Below, in pieces: positions 5,655 through 16,833 of a DNA stretch of 16,833 bases. A program made the position numbers and the translations under genes. The stretch comes from Promethearchaeota archaeon. GTDB taxonomy: Archaea > Asgardarchaeota > Lokiarchaeia > Sigyniarchaeales > SOKP01. The notes beneath the pieces were generated by a model. The model ran no database searches. It was not told the DNA's origin and saw only the letters and a program-made list of their open reading frames with translations. The DNA is taken from contig JABXKD010000043.1 of NCBI GenBank assembly GCA_013375475.1, positions 14,729 to 31,561 of the forward strand, read 5' to 3'. Position 1 is the first letter of the stretch; each line of letters opens with the position of its first letter.

Positions 5655-8600
5655 ATGGAGGGAAAAGAAGAGTTAGCTCAAGAAGCTTTAAGATATCTAT
5701 CTATAGCTCAGAATTTTGAAGAGGGAAAGGATTTTGAAAAAGCTATAGAAAACTATCACATAGCTGCCGATTATCTTAAAAGTAGTGGATATTTGATAAA
5801 TAAAATTGGCGATATTTATTCTAGAATTGAAGATTTAAAAGAATTTGCTAAACAAGAGAAGATCTACAATCAAGCTAGTGTAAAAAGCCAAATTGAACAA
5901 ATGCAAGATGAAGCGTTTTCCTTATTAGATGGAGCTCAAAAATTAGAATCAGATGGATTTTTAGAGGATGCTATTGATCAGTATATGTCCGCTATTAAAT
6001 TATTGGTTCAAGCAGGGTGGTCAGAAACCCAATTAGGAGATTTAAAAACTAAATTAAGTCAAATTGCTGGAAAAATAGAGCAGGGGAATTTAGTTAAAAA
6101 ACAAAGAAGTAGTGAAACTCAACAACCTATGACTGCTTCTAGAGAAGTTAAACCTCAGGTTTTGAGCGCGTTTGGAGAAAAAAACAGTGCGGCTAAGGAA
6201 GAAGAATTAAAAAAGTATAAAGAAATGAAAGAGCAGGAAGAGCGAATTCAAAACGAGGCTTTTACTTTCATAGATAATGCTAAATTCTTTGAAAACGATA
6301 GGAAGTTTGATAAAGCAATAGAAAATTACCAAAATGCGGTAAATCTATTAGAATCAATAGGATGGCAAGATCAAACTCAGAACATTATCCTCATAATTAA
6401 CAAATTGAAAAAAGAAAAATCTGAGTATGAAAAATTCAAAGCGCAAAAATTAGCAAAACCTACAATTATAGAAGAAAGAAGTAAAGAAGAAGTTATTGAT
6501 ATAGAAGAAATAAGAAGAGATGAAGAAAATAAGCAGTTTGCAGCTTTTAACTTGGTTGATATCGGAAAGAAGTTGGAACGAGAAAAAAAATACGATCAAG
6601 CTATAACCAATTTTGAAAAAGCGATAAAATTATTTAAATCCATAGAATGGGATTCATACATTCAGCCAGTTAAAGGTTTTATCAAAAACGTAAAAGAAAA
6701 GCAAGAAAATGAAGAGAAAACTGAAGAATTAACAGTGAAAAGAGAATCTGAACTTAAAAATCTTCAAGACACAATTTATTTAAAAGAGAGAGAAGAAATT
6801 ATACAAACTGCGAGGGAACTAGATCAGAAAAGATTAGAACACGAACAGAAACGGAGAGAAGAAGCAAGAAGAGAAGAACAATTTTTTACAGTTTTAGATG
6901 AAGCTGATAAGTTATTAAAAGAAAATCGCGCCTTCTCTGAAGCCACTAAGAAATATACAGAAGCTTTGGACCTACTCACAAAATTAGGAGCTGGCTGGGA
7001 ATCTCATGCTACTACGATTAAAAATACAATTTCAAGCATAAAAAAAATACAAGAAACTCAAATCGAAAAAGAATTGGAGGAGCAAAAGAAATTAGAACAG
7101 CGAAAAAAGTTAGATTTAGATTTTCAACAACAAACCTCTATCCAACTAGCTAAAGAAAGAGAAAAAATAAAACAAAGAGAAAGTGCTTTACAAGTAAGAA
7201 GAGATGAGATTGAATATAGAGAAAAGCAAAAAGAAGCAGCCTTTAAAGCCTTAGATGCAGCAGAAGATTATATTAAGCAATCTGAGTTAGATAAAGCGAT
7301 AACAGCGTATCAAACGGCGGGTAATATTTTTGCTAGTATCCAATGGAATGAAGAATTACATTTAATTGAAAATTCTATAAGAGACCTTGAAATTAGAAAA
7401 AGAGACCAAGCAATAGCAGAGCAAAAAGAAATGCAGAAATCCATAGAGAAATATAAAACAGATCAACAGTTTCAGGAACACATGTCTAAGCAACTTCAAC
7501 AAGAACGGGAGAGATTGAGAAAGAAGGAAATAAGGTTAAGAGATCAAAAAGCAGAACTAGAATACCGAGAGAAAAGAAAAGAATATGCTTTTAGGATATT
7601 AGACGAGGCACAACCGTTCCTAGAAAAGGGAGATTATGAAAAAACCATAGAAATCTATCAAGAAGTAACTAATATTTTCGCAGGCATTCAGTGGTATGAT
7701 GAAATGGAAAGAATTGGTAACGCTATCATCGAAATTGAAAATAAGAAGCGCAATGCTGAAATTAAAAAACAGAGGGAAATAGAAAAGCAAATCAATAGAG
7801 AAAGGGAAGATAGAGAGTTTCAAGAGAAAGTTATCAGCGAAATGAAAATTAAGAGAGATCAACTAAAACAGAGAGAAGCAGTCAAGAAGAAACGTGAAGA
7901 TGAGATATCGTTTAGGGAAACTCAAAAACAAGAGGCTTTTAGAACATTAGATGAAGCTCAAAACTATCTATCGTTAGGAAAATTCGATCTCGCTATTGAT
8001 AAATATCGAGAGGTTAACGGTATTTTCGCCCAAATTCAATGGTTGGAAGAAATACCTTTAATTAATCAAACCATTAATCAAATTGAAAATAAAAGAAAAG
8101 AGGAAGAGTTTAGAAAGCAGAGGGAATTTGAACAGATAATTAAAGAAGAAGCAGAGAATCAAAAATTTCTAGATAACATTAAAATTCAACGAAAGAGAGA
8201 ACAACTAAAAATCCTGAAGATAAGAGAATCAGAAGAACAAAAGAGGGAATTTAGTGCACAACATCTTACACTTCAGAATAATGCGTTTAAGATGATTGAA
8301 GATGCAGATGAATATCTGAAACGAGAGAATTTTGAGGAAGCCTTAGGAGCATATCAGAACGCTCTTAATGTTCTAGAAAATATTGGATGGACGGGTAATT
8401 ACATTACTTTATTAAAAGATTCGATACAGAGTGTCCAATTCAAAAAGAGGGAGAAAGAGCAAAGTGTTCTTCTGGAAAAGGAAAAATTAAGAAGACAATG
8501 GGAGGAAGAAAGAGAATTCGAACAGGAAGTAGCCCATAACCTCCAAAAAGAAAAAGAAAGGATGATAGCGAAGAAAATTGAGCTTCTTAAGAAAGAAGAA

Positions 8601-10586
8601 GTTCTACAAATGACAGAAAATCAAAAAGAAGAAGCTTTCAGAATAATGGAAAACGCAGAAGAGTTATTAAAGCAGGGGAATTATGAACAAGCAATTGATA
8701 ACTATTATCAAGCAGAGCTAATTTTAATTCAAATCAACTTTCCAACAGATCTTGTTAAGGATGCGATAAGTAAAATACAAGAAGAGAAGAGAAAAGCAGA
8801 TTTAGCAAAACAACAAGAGTTAGAAGCTAAACTTAGAAAAGAAGAAGACGAAAGACAATTCCTACAAGCAATTACAAATAAAATGAAGTTTGAGGACGAC
8901 CAAATGAGAGCTAAGCAAGTCAAAATTAAAAAGCAAGAGGAATTAAAAGCTTACCTAGAAAAACGTAAAGAAGTTGCTTTTGAATTAATAGATGAAGCAG
9001 ATAATTTAGTAAAACGAGGAAATTACGATAAGGCACTTGAATACTATAGAAGCGTCGAATTAGTACTAAGCGAAATAAACTATCCAACCAATTCAATTAA
9101 AGAGCAAATTGTTAAAGTTAAGGAAAGAAAAAGAAGCGAGGAATTACAAAAACAGAAAGAACTCGAAACTAAGCTACAAAAAGATAGAGAAGAGTTCGGA
9201 TTTCAGAGGAAAATTGCTGGAGATTTAATTAAAGAAAAGAAGCGTTTAAAATTGAAGCAAATAGCTATAGAAAAGCGCACATTAACTCTCGAAAATATTA
9301 ATAGGAAAAAAGATGATGCGTTTAGAATCTTAGACGATGCAGAGCGCCATATTAAAAATTCGGAATTTGAACTTGCATTATTGAGTTATCGAAAAGCAAT
9401 GCTAATTTTAAATGAAATCCAATTCCCAACAGACTCAATTAACGAAATGATAACAAAGGTAAGCAATCTTAAGTCAAAAAAAGGCCAAGAAGCCCAACAC
9501 GTATTAAAAAGAGAGCTAGTAAGACTAAAAGAAGAGAAATCCCTAGAAACAATAATCGAAGAAAGACGAAAGCAAGAAAGAGAGAAAAAGATCGCTCAAC
9601 AGATCGCATTACAGCAAAGAGAAAAAACCGTGCAAGATCAACTTACTTACAGAGAAGCCGCTTATTCTTTTCTTGAAGACGGAGGAAAATTCCTTAAAGG
9701 AAGGTCGCCTGATTACGATAAAGCAATATCTTTATATATACAGGCTAGAAATTTGCTCGCTGAAAAAATTGGATGGGAGCCCGAAATCAATAACTTGAAT
9801 ATACTAATTAATGATTTAGTTCGTGAGAAAGATAAATATAGAGAGAAGAAAAAGTTAGAAGCAGAAACCAGAATTAAAAGGCAACAAGAATATGAACTGT
9901 TTCGACAGCAAATTCAAAAGCAACAATTGGAAAACGAACTCAACAAGCGAGAACAACAAAAAAAGTTAAGGAAATTATACGAAGATCAAAAATATGCAGC
10001 AATAACTAAGGAGGAGGGCTTAAGTTTAATAGATGAGGGAAAGGAGCTAGCGATGAAATATAATTTCGATGATGCTTATAAAAAGTTTAATCGCGCGATT
10101 CAAAAATTCAACGAGATTGGTTGGAGTGAACAAACGAAGTATATTGAGAAAGAGATTGAAAATACAAAGATTTTCGAACAACAGGTAAGAGAAAATGATA
10201 TCAAAATCCAAAAAATACATAAAGAATTAGAGATTAAAAAAAGAGATGAAGAACGCCTAAGTAAAATAGCTGAGAGTAAATTAAAAGTAACTATTAAAGA
10301 AGTAGGTGATTTAGCTGGTGAAGTCTCGCAACTTATCAAAACTAAAAAAGAACGAGATGAAATTAAAAAAAAACAGAAAAAAGAAAAACTAATATCAGAA
10401 TCTAAACAATTTAAACGAGATATGAAAGATTTAATTAATTTGAAAGAAGAGCTTAAGAGAGAACTGTCAGAGGCAAAGAAAGATGAGGAAAAACGGAAAA
10501 AGGAGCTAGAAATAGCTAAAGATAAAGAAAAGGCGGATGAGATTAAGAAAATGCTTAAGGATATATCAAAAAAAAAATCGACCTAA
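5655..10586 (+). CDS. 1643-aa protein with about 14 MIT/TPR-like helical modules separated by long E/K/R/Q-rich coiled-coil linkers
   Basis: The motif AFxxLDxAxxxxxxxx(Y/F)(D/E)xAIxxYxxAxxx(F/L)xxIx(W/F) was counted 14 times by eye, roughly every 100-125 aa. Linkers are highly charged and helical. No signal peptide or transmembrane segment is apparent. Confidence 0.85.
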   Translation: MEGKEELAQEALRYLSIAQNFEEGKDFEKAIENYHIAADYLKSSGYLINKIGDIYSRIEDLKEFAKQEKIYNQASVKSQIEQMQDEAFSLLDGAQKLESDGFLEDAIDQYMSAIKLLVQAGWSETQLGDLKTKLSQIAGKIEQGNLVKKQRSSETQQPMTASREVKPQVLSAFGEKNSAAKEEELKKYKEMKEQEERIQNEAFTFIDNAKFFENDRKFDKAIENYQNAVNLLESIGWQDQTQNIILIINKLKKEKSEYEKFKAQKLAKPTIIEERSKEEVIDIEEIRRDEENKQFAAFNLVDIGKKLEREKKYDQAITNFEKAIKLFKSIEWDSYIQPVKGFIKNVKEKQENEEKTEELTVKRESELKNLQDTIYLKEREEIIQTARELDQKRLEHEQKRREEARREEQFFTVLDEADKLLKENRAFSEATKKYTEALDLLTKLGAGWESHATTIKNTISSIKKIQETQIEKELEEQKKLEQRKKLDLDFQQQTSIQLAKEREKIKQRESALQVRRDEIEYREKQKEAAFKALDAAEDYIKQSELDKAITAYQTAGNIFASIQWNEELHLIENSIRDLEIRKRDQAIAEQKEMQKSIEKYKTDQQFQEHMSKQLQQERERLRKKEIRLRDQKAELEYREKRKEYAFRILDEAQPFLEKGDYEKTIEIYQEVTNIFAGIQWYDEMERIGNAIIEIENKKRNAEIKKQREIEKQINREREDREFQEKVISEMKIKRDQLKQREAVKKKREDEISFRETQKQEAFRTLDEAQNYLSLGKFDLAIDKYREVNGIFAQIQWLEEIPLINQTINQIENKRKEEEFRKQREFEQIIKEEAENQKFLDNIKIQRKREQLKILKIRESEEQKREFSAQHLTLQNNAFKMIEDADEYLKRENFEEALGAYQNALNVLENIGWTGNYITLLKDSIQSVQFKKREKEQSVLLEKEKLRRQWEEEREFEQEVAHNLQKEKERMIAKKIELLKKEEVLQMTENQKEEAFRIMENAEELLKQGNYEQAIDNYYQAELILIQINFPTDLVKDAISKIQEEKRKADLAKQQELEAKLRKEEDERQFLQAITNKMKFEDDQMRAKQVKIKKQEELKAYLEKRKEVAFELIDEADNLVKRGNYDKALEYYRSVELVLSEINYPTNSIKEQIVKVKERKRSEELQKQKELETKLQKDREEFGFQRKIAGDLIKEKKRLKLKQIAIEKRTLTLENINRKKDDAFRILDDAERHIKNSEFELALLSYRKAMLILNEIQFPTDSINEMITKVSNLKSKKGQEAQHVLKRELVRLKEEKSLETIIEERRKQEREKKIAQQIALQQREKTVQDQLTYREAAYSFLEDGGKFLKGRSPDYDKAISLYIQARNLLAEKIGWEPEINNLNILINDLVREKDKYREKKKLEAETRIKRQQEYELFRQQIQKQQLENELNKREQQKKLRKLYEDQKYAAITKEEGLSLIDEGKELAMKYNFDDAYKKFNRAIQKFNEIGWSEQTKYIEKEIENTKIFEQQVRENDIKIQKIHKELEIKKRDEERLSKIAESKLKVTIKEVGDLAGEVSQLIKTKKERDEIKKKQKKEKLISESKQFKRDMKDLINLKEELKRELSEAKKDEEKRKKELEIAKDKEKADEIKKMLKDISKKKST

Positions 10587-12191: not shown

Positions 12192-13769
12192 ATGACAGTA
12201 GACAAGGAAGATATCAAAAAATCACGGATGTACGCCCGTCAACAGTTAATAGACGGGTGGGATCAAGAAATTGTTAGTGAAGGATGCGTAATGATCGTAG
12301 GTGTTGGAGCTTTAGGTTGCGAGATAGCTAAAGATTTCGCCTTAATGGGAATAGGAAAAGTAGTTTTAGTGGATTTAGACACCATTGAAACCTCTAACCT
12401 TTCACGTCAAATGCTATTCAAACCTGGTGACGAGGGTCGTCCTAAAGCAGAAGTCGCCGCAGAAAGGTTAAGAGATATGAATCCCTTTTTAAAAGTCGAC
12501 TTTTATTTTGAAAAGCTTCAAAAATTACCGATGTCAGTGTACGAAGAATGTGACATTGTTATTGCTGCATTAGATAACTTTAACGCAAGGCTAGATTTAA
12601 ATAAAATATGTTTAAGACTAAAAAAGCCAATGGTTGAAGGTGGAACAGTAGGATTTGAAGGGCACGTTCAAGTAGTTATTCCAGAAGGATCTAAACTCGA
12701 GTATAAAAATCGAGAAAATGAAATCGAAAAAATTGTAGAAACTAAAATGTGGGAATACGACAATCCAGAGTATTTAGATGCACAGAAAGAAATAGAGCAG
12801 TTAGAATACCTTATTGAAAGGTTGAGGATTGAAAAATTAGAGCCTTTTAAAAAACTTGTTAGAAAACAAGTCGAAGAAGATTTTGATAAAAAATACGCAA
12901 AGGATTTATTGGACATTACTCCTTGTTATCGTTGTTTGGTTCCCATCCCCCCTGCTGACGATAAGTTGGTAGCCGCGTGCACTTTAAAGGGACTTCCGAG
13001 AAATAGAAACCATTGTGTTATAAAAGCAGAAGTAACCTTCGAGAAAGAACACGGTTTTAAACCTGATATGAATGTAGACGACGATGTGGTAAAATTGATG
13101 GCATTATCACAAAAGGAGTTAGAAGAATTACGAACAAGAGTCTTTAATGAGAATGTTTCACCGGAAAAATTAGAAACTCTCAGTGATGAAGAAATTCAAG
13201 AATGGAAAGATAACATTAAAGAAACATTTGGTGCTAATTACAAGTTCGAAGAAATGGAGAATATTTTAGGAAATAAAATTGCAGCGATTCAATCGGTCAG
13301 CTCTGTTATTTCGAGCATACAATCCCAAGAAGCCTTAAAATTATTGTTTCGATTACACGGTAGAAATATTGGCCCTCCAATGGATCCTCCTTATGTTAAT
13401 TATAATGGTGTATATGGTCAATTTGATCATTTAGATATTACTAAAAGAGACGATTGCCTTGCATGTGGGAAGATTGAAGGTGAGGAGAATGTGCAAATTG
13501 TTGTTCCATTTGACGCTGACGTAGGATATATATTCAAAGCTATGAGAATAACAGGCTATGAATTGGAACCTATTTTATGGATGATTACTAATCCAGTTAA
13601 TAAAGAGATGTTTTGGAATCCCTATATGAGTGGAGAGTTTAAAGATCCGAGCATAAAATTAACAGCCCTTAAAATTAAAAGCAATGATATAATCACCCTT
13701 ACACCTTTAGGCAAAGCGAAGGTAGAATCAGAGATCAAAAAGTATAATGTAATAATAACCTACATGTAA
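12192..13769 (+). CDS. Ubiquitin/UBL-activating enzyme E1 (ThiF/MoeB fold with a eukaryote-like catalytic-Cys domain and a C-terminal extension)
   Basis: Adenylation motifs YARQ, VGVGALGCE, DLDTIETSNLSRQMLF, KAEVAA and ALDNFNAR. Zn ligands PCYRC and DCLAC. Catalytic-Cys motif CTLKGLPRNRNHC (Cys codon 12978-12980). Confidence 0.93.
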   Translation: MTVDKEDIKKSRMYARQQLIDGWDQEIVSEGCVMIVGVGALGCEIAKDFALMGIGKVVLVDLDTIETSNLSRQMLFKPGDEGRPKAEVAAERLRDMNPFLKVDFYFEKLQKLPMSVYEECDIVIAALDNFNARLDLNKICLRLKKPMVEGGTVGFEGHVQVVIPEGSKLEYKNRENEIEKIVETKMWEYDNPEYLDAQKEIEQLEYLIERLRIEKLEPFKKLVRKQVEEDFDKKYAKDLLDITPCYRCLVPIPPADDKLVAACTLKGLPRNRNHCVIKAEVTFEKEHGFKPDMNVDDDVVKLMALSQKELEELRTRVFNENVSPEKLETLSDEEIQEWKDNIKETFGANYKFEEMENILGNKIAAIQSVSSVISSIQSQEALKLLFRLHGRNIGPPMDPPYVNYNGVYGQFDHLDITKRDDCLACGKIEGEENVQIVVPFDADVGYIFKAMRITGYELEPILWMITNPVNKEMFWNPYMSGEFKDPSIKLTALKIKSNDIITLTPLGKAKVESEIKKYNVIITYM

Positions 13770-15770: not shown

Positions 15771-16238
15771 ATGCGAGATAAGAGATTTGTAGCAGAACAT
15801 CGTGGTGGACTCCTAAAAAAGGAGCAGCACCGCCAATTAATGCAGTGGGGTTGTGATTGTGCTGAAAATGTATTATCCCTCTTCGGTAAAGAAATGGATA
15901 AACGACTAGGATATGCTATCACAGTGGCTAAAGAATGGATAAATGGAAACGCTTCGGTAGGGAATGCAAGAGATGCTTCATTAGGTGCACATTTGGTGGC
16001 AAGAGAATCCACTGATCCAACTTCGATAGCGGTTGCACGTTCTGTTGGACATGCTGTTGCAACAGCTCATATGGCTGATCATTCATTAGGAGCCGCGTTA
16101 TATGCATTAAAGGCCGTTAAAAGTGCAGGTAAGTCTATTGAGGTCGAGAGAAACTGGCAGAATGAAAAATTACCCGTTGAAATTATGGAGCTTGTAAAAA
16201 CTGCAAGAAATAAGAAAGAGAAAGCTTTGAAGATATGA
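15771..16238 (+). CDS. Imm5-like putative immunity-family helical protein
   Basis: HRQLMQWGCDCAENVL, ARDASLGAHLVARE, ARSVGHAVATAHMADHSLGAALYALKAV and ERNWQ match my recollection of the Imm5-like family pattern. Not verified by a search. Confidence 0.7.
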   Translation: MRDKRFVAEHRGGLLKKEQHRQLMQWGCDCAENVLSLFGKEMDKRLGYAITVAKEWINGNASVGNARDASLGAHLVARESTDPTSIAVARSVGHAVATAHMADHSLGAALYALKAVKSAGKSIEVERNWQNEKLPVEIMELVKTARNKKEKALKI

Positions 16239-16341
16239 CATTATATAATAAGTTCATAAAACTACCATATGTGTCTATACAACCTTGAATAAATAATTTA
16301 GTTTAGTACAAAAAATAAGGGATAAAAAAGAGTAATTAATC

Positions 16342-16833
16342 CTAATCCATGGCGTATTTAGCAGTCCATGACTTAGCTTTTGCTTCGAACTTCTTTTGAG
16401 CTCTAAAATATTGCTCACCCGCCTCGTGGTTAAGAGGGTCTCCTGGGTTAAAGAAGGGAGGCTCAACATGCATCATACCTTTTAAGGCTTCTATGATGTT
16501 CGTCAAGGTTTTTGAAGGGGTCCAACCGGAAGCCCCTGTCGAAGCGTCAACTTTACCAACTAGGTCGGGATTAATCAAATCTAAACATATATTAAGTTTT
16601 CCGGGAGGAATGCTGCTATCTATATTAGGGTGCCACATTAAGGTAACGGCATATGCATTTCTCCAAGATAGACGAGATGTCTCACATTATGGAGGGGCGA
16701 AAGGATAATTTTTTTCCCTCTAAACCGAGATGGTTTAAAAATTATAAAGATCTGGGAATTTAATTTCGAAAATGAATTTTCCTTTCGCATATGGCGTTCC
16801 TTCTTTTCCGATGATGGTCAGTCGGAGGTGGTC
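16342..16833 (-). CDS. Ubiquitin-conjugating enzyme E2 (UBC), 5'-truncated by the window; split gene, complement(join(16342..16658,16689..16712,16752..>16833))
   Basis: The joined product reads DHLRLTIIGKEGTPYAKGKFIFEIKFPENYPFAPPYAYAVTLMWHPNIDSSIPPGKLNICLDL...GWTPSKTLTNIIEAL...PLNHEAG...AKSWTAKYA. It contains all UBC hallmarks (GTPY.gG.F, FP.nYPF.PP, HPNI, catalytic Cys at 16585-16587, W.P, PLN.EA). The ORF track captures only the last 98 aa because of in-frame stops in the two insertions. Confidence 0.92.
16659..16688 (-). other. Putative 30-nt BHB-type intron 2 of the E2 gene
   Basis: Sense sequence AATGTGAGACATCTCGTCTATCTTGGAGAA, which creates an in-frame TAA at its 5' junction. Central helix CUCC/GGAG, bulges AU^A and AA^A. 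Joining gives CCA T|AT GCA (P-Y-A). Confidence 0.78.
16713..16751 (-). other. Putative 39-nt BHB-type intron 1 of the E2 gene
   Basis: Sense sequence ATCTTTATAATTTTTAAACCATCTCGGTTTAGAGGGAAA, with in-frame TAA and TAG. Central helix UCCC/GGGA, bulges AG^A and AA^A, inner helix UCU/AGA. Joining gives CCA G|AA AAT TAT (P-E-N-Y). Confidence 0.8.

Follow-up and report, generated by a model that had tools for sequence, protein, structure and literature searches.

Here we report that a gene for a ubiquitin-conjugating enzyme (E2; UQ_con) on the minus strand of a Promethearchaeota (Loki-type Asgard) MAG is very likely interrupted by two archaeal bulge-helix-bulge (BHB) introns within its coding sequence, and that its pre-mRNA is very probably spliced. 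The gene lies at the end of the 16,833-nt stretch of DNA that was analysed (the window). One reading frame extends from the window end to a stop codon at 16342-16344, and it contains three in-frame stops (TAA, TAG and TAA), all of them within two inserts located between the FP...YPF..PP and HPN motifs of E2. Alignment with 11 orthologs of the same genus identifies these inserts as one 39-nt and one 30-nt insertion and reveals no other lesion in the exons. Excising both restores KFPENYPFAPPYAYAVTLMWHPN, the protein sequence of the relatives, with both splice junctions inside a codon (phase 1). The contig (C226) and the window both end inside the E2 gene, so that its 5′ end is missing. The features of the locus are as follows, an arrow within a bulge marking the predicted cut:

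16752-16833, minus strand: E2 exon 1, partial, encoding DHLRL...EIKFP and the first base of a Glu codon.
16754-16757, minus strand: H(a) of intron A, exon TCCC, forming the 5′ side of the 4-bp central helix; the bulge AG↓A (16751-16753) comes next.
16713-16751, minus strand: putative intron A, 39 nt, with in-frame TAA and TAG, missing from the 11 same-genus orthologs.
16721-16737, minus strand: hairpin 1, TAAACC-ATCTC-GGTTTA, the distal portion of intron A's inner helix h′.
16715-16718, minus strand: H(b) of intron A, intron GGGA, which pairs with TCCC, followed by the bulge AA↓A (16712-16714).
16689-16712, minus strand: exon 2, a 24-nt micro-exon encoding ...ENYPFAPP and the first base of a Tyr codon; its final six bases, CTCCAT, comprise the H(a) of intron B plus two of its bulge bases.
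16659-16688, minus strand: putative intron B, 30 nt, with in-frame TAA; four other genomes have an orthologous intron at this position.
16670-16682, minus strand: hairpin 2, AGAC-ATCTC-GTCT, the distal portion of h′ of intron B.
16661-16664, minus strand: H(b) of intron B, GGAG, which pairs with exon CTCC (16691-16694), followed by the bulge AA↓A (16658-16660).
16342-16658, minus strand: E2 exon 3 with the stop codon, containing HPN and the NICL catalytic-cysteine region.
12192-13769, plus strand: ThiF-family (E1-like) gene, 2.6 kb from the E2 gene.

Assignment to the E2 class rests on a UBC-fold profile match together with the presence of both HPN and NICL. Exon 3 alone matches Pfam UQ_con (PF00179) with 36.6 bits (cut-off 27) over profile positions 70-139, and the intact ortholog L031 scores 91.7 bits over positions 13-139. 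The ThiF-family gene and the E2 gene probably belong to the same ubiquitin-type system. Near both of them, on the plus strand at 5655-10586, the window encodes a protein of 1643 residues that combines MIT with many TPR repeats and may be part of the same eukaryote-like module. Directly downstream of E2, on the opposite strand (15771-16238, plus), lies a gene for an Imm-5-like putative immunity protein (139.7 bits).

The junctions were mapped independently, by alignment with intron-less orthologs, and the canonical geometry was applied per strand: four nucleotides of helix, then two bulge bases, the cut and one further bulge base. Intron A reads TCCC (AG↓A) ... GGGA (AA↓A) and intron B reads CTCC (AT↓A) ... 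GGAG (AA↓A), with four of four central helix pairs in each. Both 4-bp helices (TCCC/GGGA; CTCC/GGAG) have a 3-nt bulge on either side, and cleavage past the second base of each bulge would reproduce exactly the alignment-mapped junctions and leave the conserved ORF intact. Cleavage after the second bulge base is the archaeal BHB rule and is consistent with the 37/38 geometry of tRNA. Shifted registers that yield an equivalent product form only one or two of the four pairs.

The minimum-energy folds of introns A and B include both central helices, with fold energies modestly below those of shuffled sequences (z of -1.6 and -1.9). For intron A, a canonical 3-nt 5′ bulge needs a 3-bp UCU/AGA helix, and the minimum-energy fold gives a 14-nt 5′ bulge instead. 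For intron B, the minimum-energy inner hairpin is UGAG/CUCG with the loop ACAU and not AGAC-ATCTC-GTCT, a register that is backed by comparison with the orthologous introns. At site B, described below, the inner helix h′ is present and covaries, and across the E2 inserts the outer helix h (exon-exon) amounts to 0-2 bp at nearly all sites; because h is nearly absent, the motif is a relaxed BHB and not a strict hBHBh′. An Rfam scan of positions 16300-16833 returned only one snoRNA hit, at chance level (E 0.83) and outside the introns. Self-splicing introns of group I or group II were rejected as candidates on the lack of an Rfam match and on size, the inserts being only 39 and 30 nt long. Group I and group II introns are hundreds of bases long.

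We propose the following mechanism. In the pre-mRNA, the four exon bases just 5′ of each 5′ splice site would pair with the four intron bases just 5′ of the 3′ site, leaving a 3-nt bulge on each strand, while the intron interior would fold as the inner hairpin h′, which corresponds to the hairpins listed above. The tRNA-splicing endonuclease EndA would cut after the second base of each bulge, and RtcB would ligate the exons and probably circularise the intron. The mature mRNA would encode a conserved E2 of about 171 residues, and translation of the unspliced RNA would end at the stops in the introns. We infer that cleavage and ligation take place in the cell. The genome encodes candidates for both enzymes: two EndA paralogues with tRNA_int_endo (PF01974), of 200 and 203 aa, score 99 and 70 bits, and one RtcB (PF01139) ORF scores 561 bits; the EndA ORFs are on contigs C215 and C133 and that of RtcB is on C211. 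ARAGORN finds 29 tRNA genes in the genome and calls an intron in 14 of them. Relaxed BHB forms are, according to one report (PMC5829648), cut only by two-subunit and epsilon-type endonucleases.

Similar inserts occur in E2 genes of related archaea. In what follows, G000 is this genome and other G and L labels denote related genomes and loci. Among the best 80 of 141 E2 loci in species-representative genomes, five are interrupted and two are truncated at contig ends. Within the genus, the ortholog was found in 36 of the 42 genomes searched and is interrupted in five (G000, G005 with two copies, G023, G050 and G051, the last being by its coordinates the same record as L067). Altogether there are 15 inserts in 10 interrupted E2 copies; these are not independent, since they occupy seven sites in a 171-codon gene and some of the introns are orthologous. 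Genes in relatives carry up to three introns. G005 has two E2 orthologs (C91 and C185), one with three introns and the other with one, and G015 has an extra C-terminal E2 fragment (C14:32671-32799) located 3 kb from its intact gene. On a 140-codon tree, intron-bearing tips are scattered among intron-less neighbours, which implies repeated gain, loss or exchange, the tree being too short to choose among the three.

The inserts measure 29, 29, 30 (nine times), 31, 31, 32 and 39 nt. A complete central helix (4/4) is found in 13 of the 15, a count that includes two whose boundary was re-placed by 5 nt with an equally conserved protein as the result; one further insert has 3/4 and one has 1/4 (G005b, site C′). 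As a null, displacing the 3′ strand by at least 2 nt gives 4/4 in 2 of 294 registers (0.7%). Three inserts (G023 at site E, L097 and G023 at site C) do not form a strict BHB where the alignment first placed them; they fit one once the boundary is moved or set to an equivalent position. Of the 15 inserts, 13 have AA↓A as the 3′ bulge and 14 end in AA. Because five of the 15 inserts have frame-breaking lengths (29, 29, 31, 31 and 32 nt), the frame is kept only on their removal. The spliced ORFs are intact in all 10 copies, at 170-175 aa, with that of G000 truncated by the contig end.

Aligned orthologous introns show compensatory change. At site B (five sequences: G000, L067, G005b, L092 and G023), 86% of cells are paired compared with 34-58% when slid, both sides have changed in six of nine h′ pairs, and the closing pair of hairpin 2 is variously C-G, U-G and U-A. 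At site C, which is occupied in four relatives and not in the window gene of G000, 98% of cells are paired compared with 15-47% when slid. In the central helix of that site one pair, formed by an exon codon base and an intron base, switches from G-C to A-U (L106, L025, L097 and L023; columns 9 and 38 of alignment A2), and the codon concerned is Val versus Ile/Met in GMMH[V/I/M]E. Splice signal and protein sequence constrain one another at site C. Intron A has no ortholog, hence there is no covariation support for intron A itself.

These comparisons bear on the idea that the ribosome crosses the inserts, either by translational bypassing, as in phage T4 gene 60, or by stop-codon read-through. 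In favour of it, the gaps are short and have stops and a hairpin in them, and in G000 a single frame is kept throughout. Read-through, however, would add 23 unconserved residues within the conserved YPF..PP..HPN core and would not accommodate the 29-, 31- and 32-nt inserts of the relatives. Bypassing is at odds with the phase-1 junctions, which have no matching take-off and landing codons, and it gives no reason to expect the 4-bp helix between exon and intron or the covariation of this helix. We regard crossing by the ribosome as extremely improbable. Reassignment of a stop codon was also considered and rejected, as ORFs elsewhere in the window terminate normally under table 11.

The exons are under selection at the protein level. 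Comparison of the interrupted genes with their nearest intron-less relatives gives dN/dS from 0.002 to 0.028; G000 and L031, for example, differ by 39 synonymous and 2 non-synonymous changes. For G000 versus L067, both of which have the site-B intron, the ratio is 0.011. The interrupted E2 genes thus appear, from their pattern of substitution, to be alive. The same values weigh against a reading of the inserts as insertion scars that are never removed from a decaying pseudogene. That reading can appeal to the in-frame stops, to the lack of any sign of removal in RNA, and to an intron-less allele of the 5′ part of the gene elsewhere in the bin. The public runs examined were one DNA run and three RNA runs (4 of the 22 listed); spliced RNA was not seen in the three RNA runs, and no RNA contig from this strain spans the introns. 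RNA contigs at the locus are intron-less past the exon-3 boundary, and their exons match relatives that lack the introns in their DNA, so these contigs say nothing about this strain. Against decay stand, in addition to the substitution ratios, the absence of a further lesion in the exons, the compensatory changes in the stems, and the recurrence of inserts at the same sites in separate lineages, reported as always BHB (though site C′ of G005b forms only one of four helix pairs). A pseudogene is, on this balance, very unlikely.

The intron-less allele just mentioned lies at a contig end (G000:C9:9182-9394, L130), covers the 5′ part of E2 and is G014-like. A second, intron-less fragment of an EF-2-family gene is found at G000:C109:162-680. 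Because the bin holds such intron-less second alleles, it mixes at least two related strains. The assembly broke inside the E2 gene between two strains, with contigs breaking where the strains differ by introns. The break within the gene and the mixture of two alleles also lend themselves to an explanation of the inserts as artefacts of assembly or binning, or as elements excised at the DNA level. A contig from the public DNA run, however, covers 16612-16833 with both inserts and zero differences, although this run may stem from the source sample and is then not fully independent, and inserts of the same kind occur in nine further gene copies from other assemblies. We assign an artefact or DNA-level excision almost no weight, and BHB introns remain our preferred account of the inserts.

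The original prediction had drawn attention to the inserts through their hairpins, both of which are present on the minus (sense) strand at the positions listed above. It had further observed that the 7-mer CATCTCG is identical in the two introns and that each insert has A as its first base and AA as its last two, and these observations are correct; the terminal bases are the bulge nucleotides of the BHB. The feature common to introns A and B is this BHB geometry at the exon-intron boundaries, which the prediction had not seen. Its proposal of a single intron family holds insofar as the E2 gene contains two small introns of one kind, but there is no support for the C-AUCUC-G loop as the mark of such a family. 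The different yet paired stems had been likened to covariation; introns A and B are non-homologous, and true covariation is found only among aligned orthologous introns.

The loop itself had been put forward as a recognition site for a factor that assists splicing, or as the tag of one mobile intron family that could be traced genome-wide. The identical 7-mer does occupy the hairpin-loop position in both introns, and one site-C intron (relative L097) likewise has ATCTCG in its loop region. Yet the orthologous site-B introns of four genomes have other loops (AATTA, GGTTA and others) on a covarying stem. In the 3.92-Mb genome CATCTCG occurs 224 times on both strands, close to the composition estimate of about 212, and 15 of the 224 are enclosed by a stem of at least 4 bp where about 13 are expected. 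The 13 other stem-CATCTCG-stem sites found by this genome-wide search all lie inside open frames of 215-743 codons and none interrupts an ORF, so that the motif finds no support as a handle on split genes. The EF-2-family intron and two tRNA introns described below lack CATCTCG. Shuffled introns of 39 and 30 nt share some 7-mer in 6.7% of 20,000 trials (p about 0.07), and a shared 7-mer is found in 3 of 88 non-orthologous intron pairs of the E2 set. By eye, introns A and B have no clear similarity beyond the 7-mer and the helix-constrained 3′ end. A role for the loop in recognition or as a family tag therefore has little to recommend it, and the shared loop is most likely a coincidence, with a small chance that intron A was derived from intron B. 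The identical loop plays no part in the mechanism proposed above. Further interrupted genes are to be sought by a 4-bp helix between exon and intron, with bulges of the AA↓A type, combined with comparison to intron-less orthologs, and not by the loop sequence.

A comparison was made between the genome and 370 kb of a relative (G008:C34), of which 215 kb aligned. A gene of the EF-2/EF-G family contains a BHB-shaped 30-nt insert (G000:C244:55788-55817; L129:388-417) with an in-frame TAA and the boundaries TCAG (AT↓T) ... CTGA (AA↓G). This insert splits the Pfam GTP_EFTU domain, profile positions 3-37 preceding it and 48-187 following it, and a 30-nt stop-bearing extension is present in the same EF-2-family gene in G046, G023 and G015. 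Compared with G008, two apparent tRNA genes, one of them with several interruptions, contain inserts of 30 and 29 nt:

G000:C224, near 9790 from its end, minus strand, and G000:C9, near 1398, minus strand: tRNA-gene inserts relative to G008.

In the opposite direction, G008:C34 has near 241678 (minus strand) a 30-nt insert relative to G000:C9, with the boundaries ACCC (TG↓A) ... GGGT (AA↓T) and no long open frame; its host may be a non-coding RNA. Three more stop-bearing "insertions" (C224 at 9150, and C246 in two places), obtained when 514 ORFs of G008:C34 were compared with the genome at the protein level, were discarded as upstream-of-start or non-coding-frame noise. A scan of the genome by motif only (4-bp helix, h′ of at least 4 bp, length 24-45 nt, at least 60 open codons on each side) gave 252 hits compared with 234-276 for four decoy geometries, and it has no power because adjacent genes dominate.

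The nearest precedent is the cbf5 (pseudouridine synthase) pre-mRNA of Crenarchaeota, which is described in earlier reports as having a BHB intron (Watanabe 2002; Yokobori 2009, PMC2738675). A 2020 paper names cbf5 as the sole reported archaeal mRNA BHB intron apart from that in the 5′ UTR of HVO_1309 (PMC7714728). The E2 introns resemble the cbf5 intron in being short, BHB-defined and within coding sequence, in an expected removal by tRNA-splicing endonuclease and RNA ligase, and in a presence that varies among related lineages. They differ from it in the host, an E2 gene of the Asgard phylum, and in that splicing is here a prediction from sequence. They also differ in number: two lie 24 nt apart in one gene, with up to three in relatives, and the 171 codons of that gene contain at least seven sites, several of which have introns in separate lineages. 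The HVO_1309 intron of Haloferax volcanii likewise belongs to an mRNA, and the same paper confirmed in vitro that this mRNA is a substrate of the archaeal splicing endonuclease (PMC7714728). Unlike the E2 introns, the HVO_1309 intron lies in an untranslated leader and its removal rebuilds no ORF.

Non-canonical tRNA introns of Asgard archaea are the subject of a preprint that covers tRNA genes only, with a sole mention of "protein-coding" that refers to neighbouring genes used for locus matching (10.64898/2026.10.13.758758). With these tRNA introns the E2 introns share the host group, the motif and repeated gains at motif-competent sites, but their host is an mRNA, so that frame and stops matter. 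[quoted passage not shown]

A eukaryote-signature gene of an Asgard archaeon would carry two BHB introns 24 nt apart, and a translation-factor gene of that genome would carry one too. If splicing is confirmed, gene callers misannotate such Asgard genes as pseudogenes or fragments, the substrates of the tRNA-splicing enzymes include mRNAs in the lineage nearest to eukaryotes, and the arrival of introns can be tested on a gene that gained them many times independently. We put forward, only tentatively, a wider picture in which the genus harbours a changing set of endonuclease-dependent introns, each roughly 30 nt long, within ordinary protein-coding genes: dozens per genome, several per gene with micro-exons between them, regained at the same motif-competent codons and polymorphic between co-existing strains. 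Were this the case, the identical loops could be a remnant of one of the two introns, A or B, having seeded the other, for instance through reverse splicing in the same transcript. A layer of mRNA splicing carried out by protein enzymes would then exist already in the prokaryotes closest to eukaryotes, and this layer could gate expression, for example that of ubiquitin system genes.
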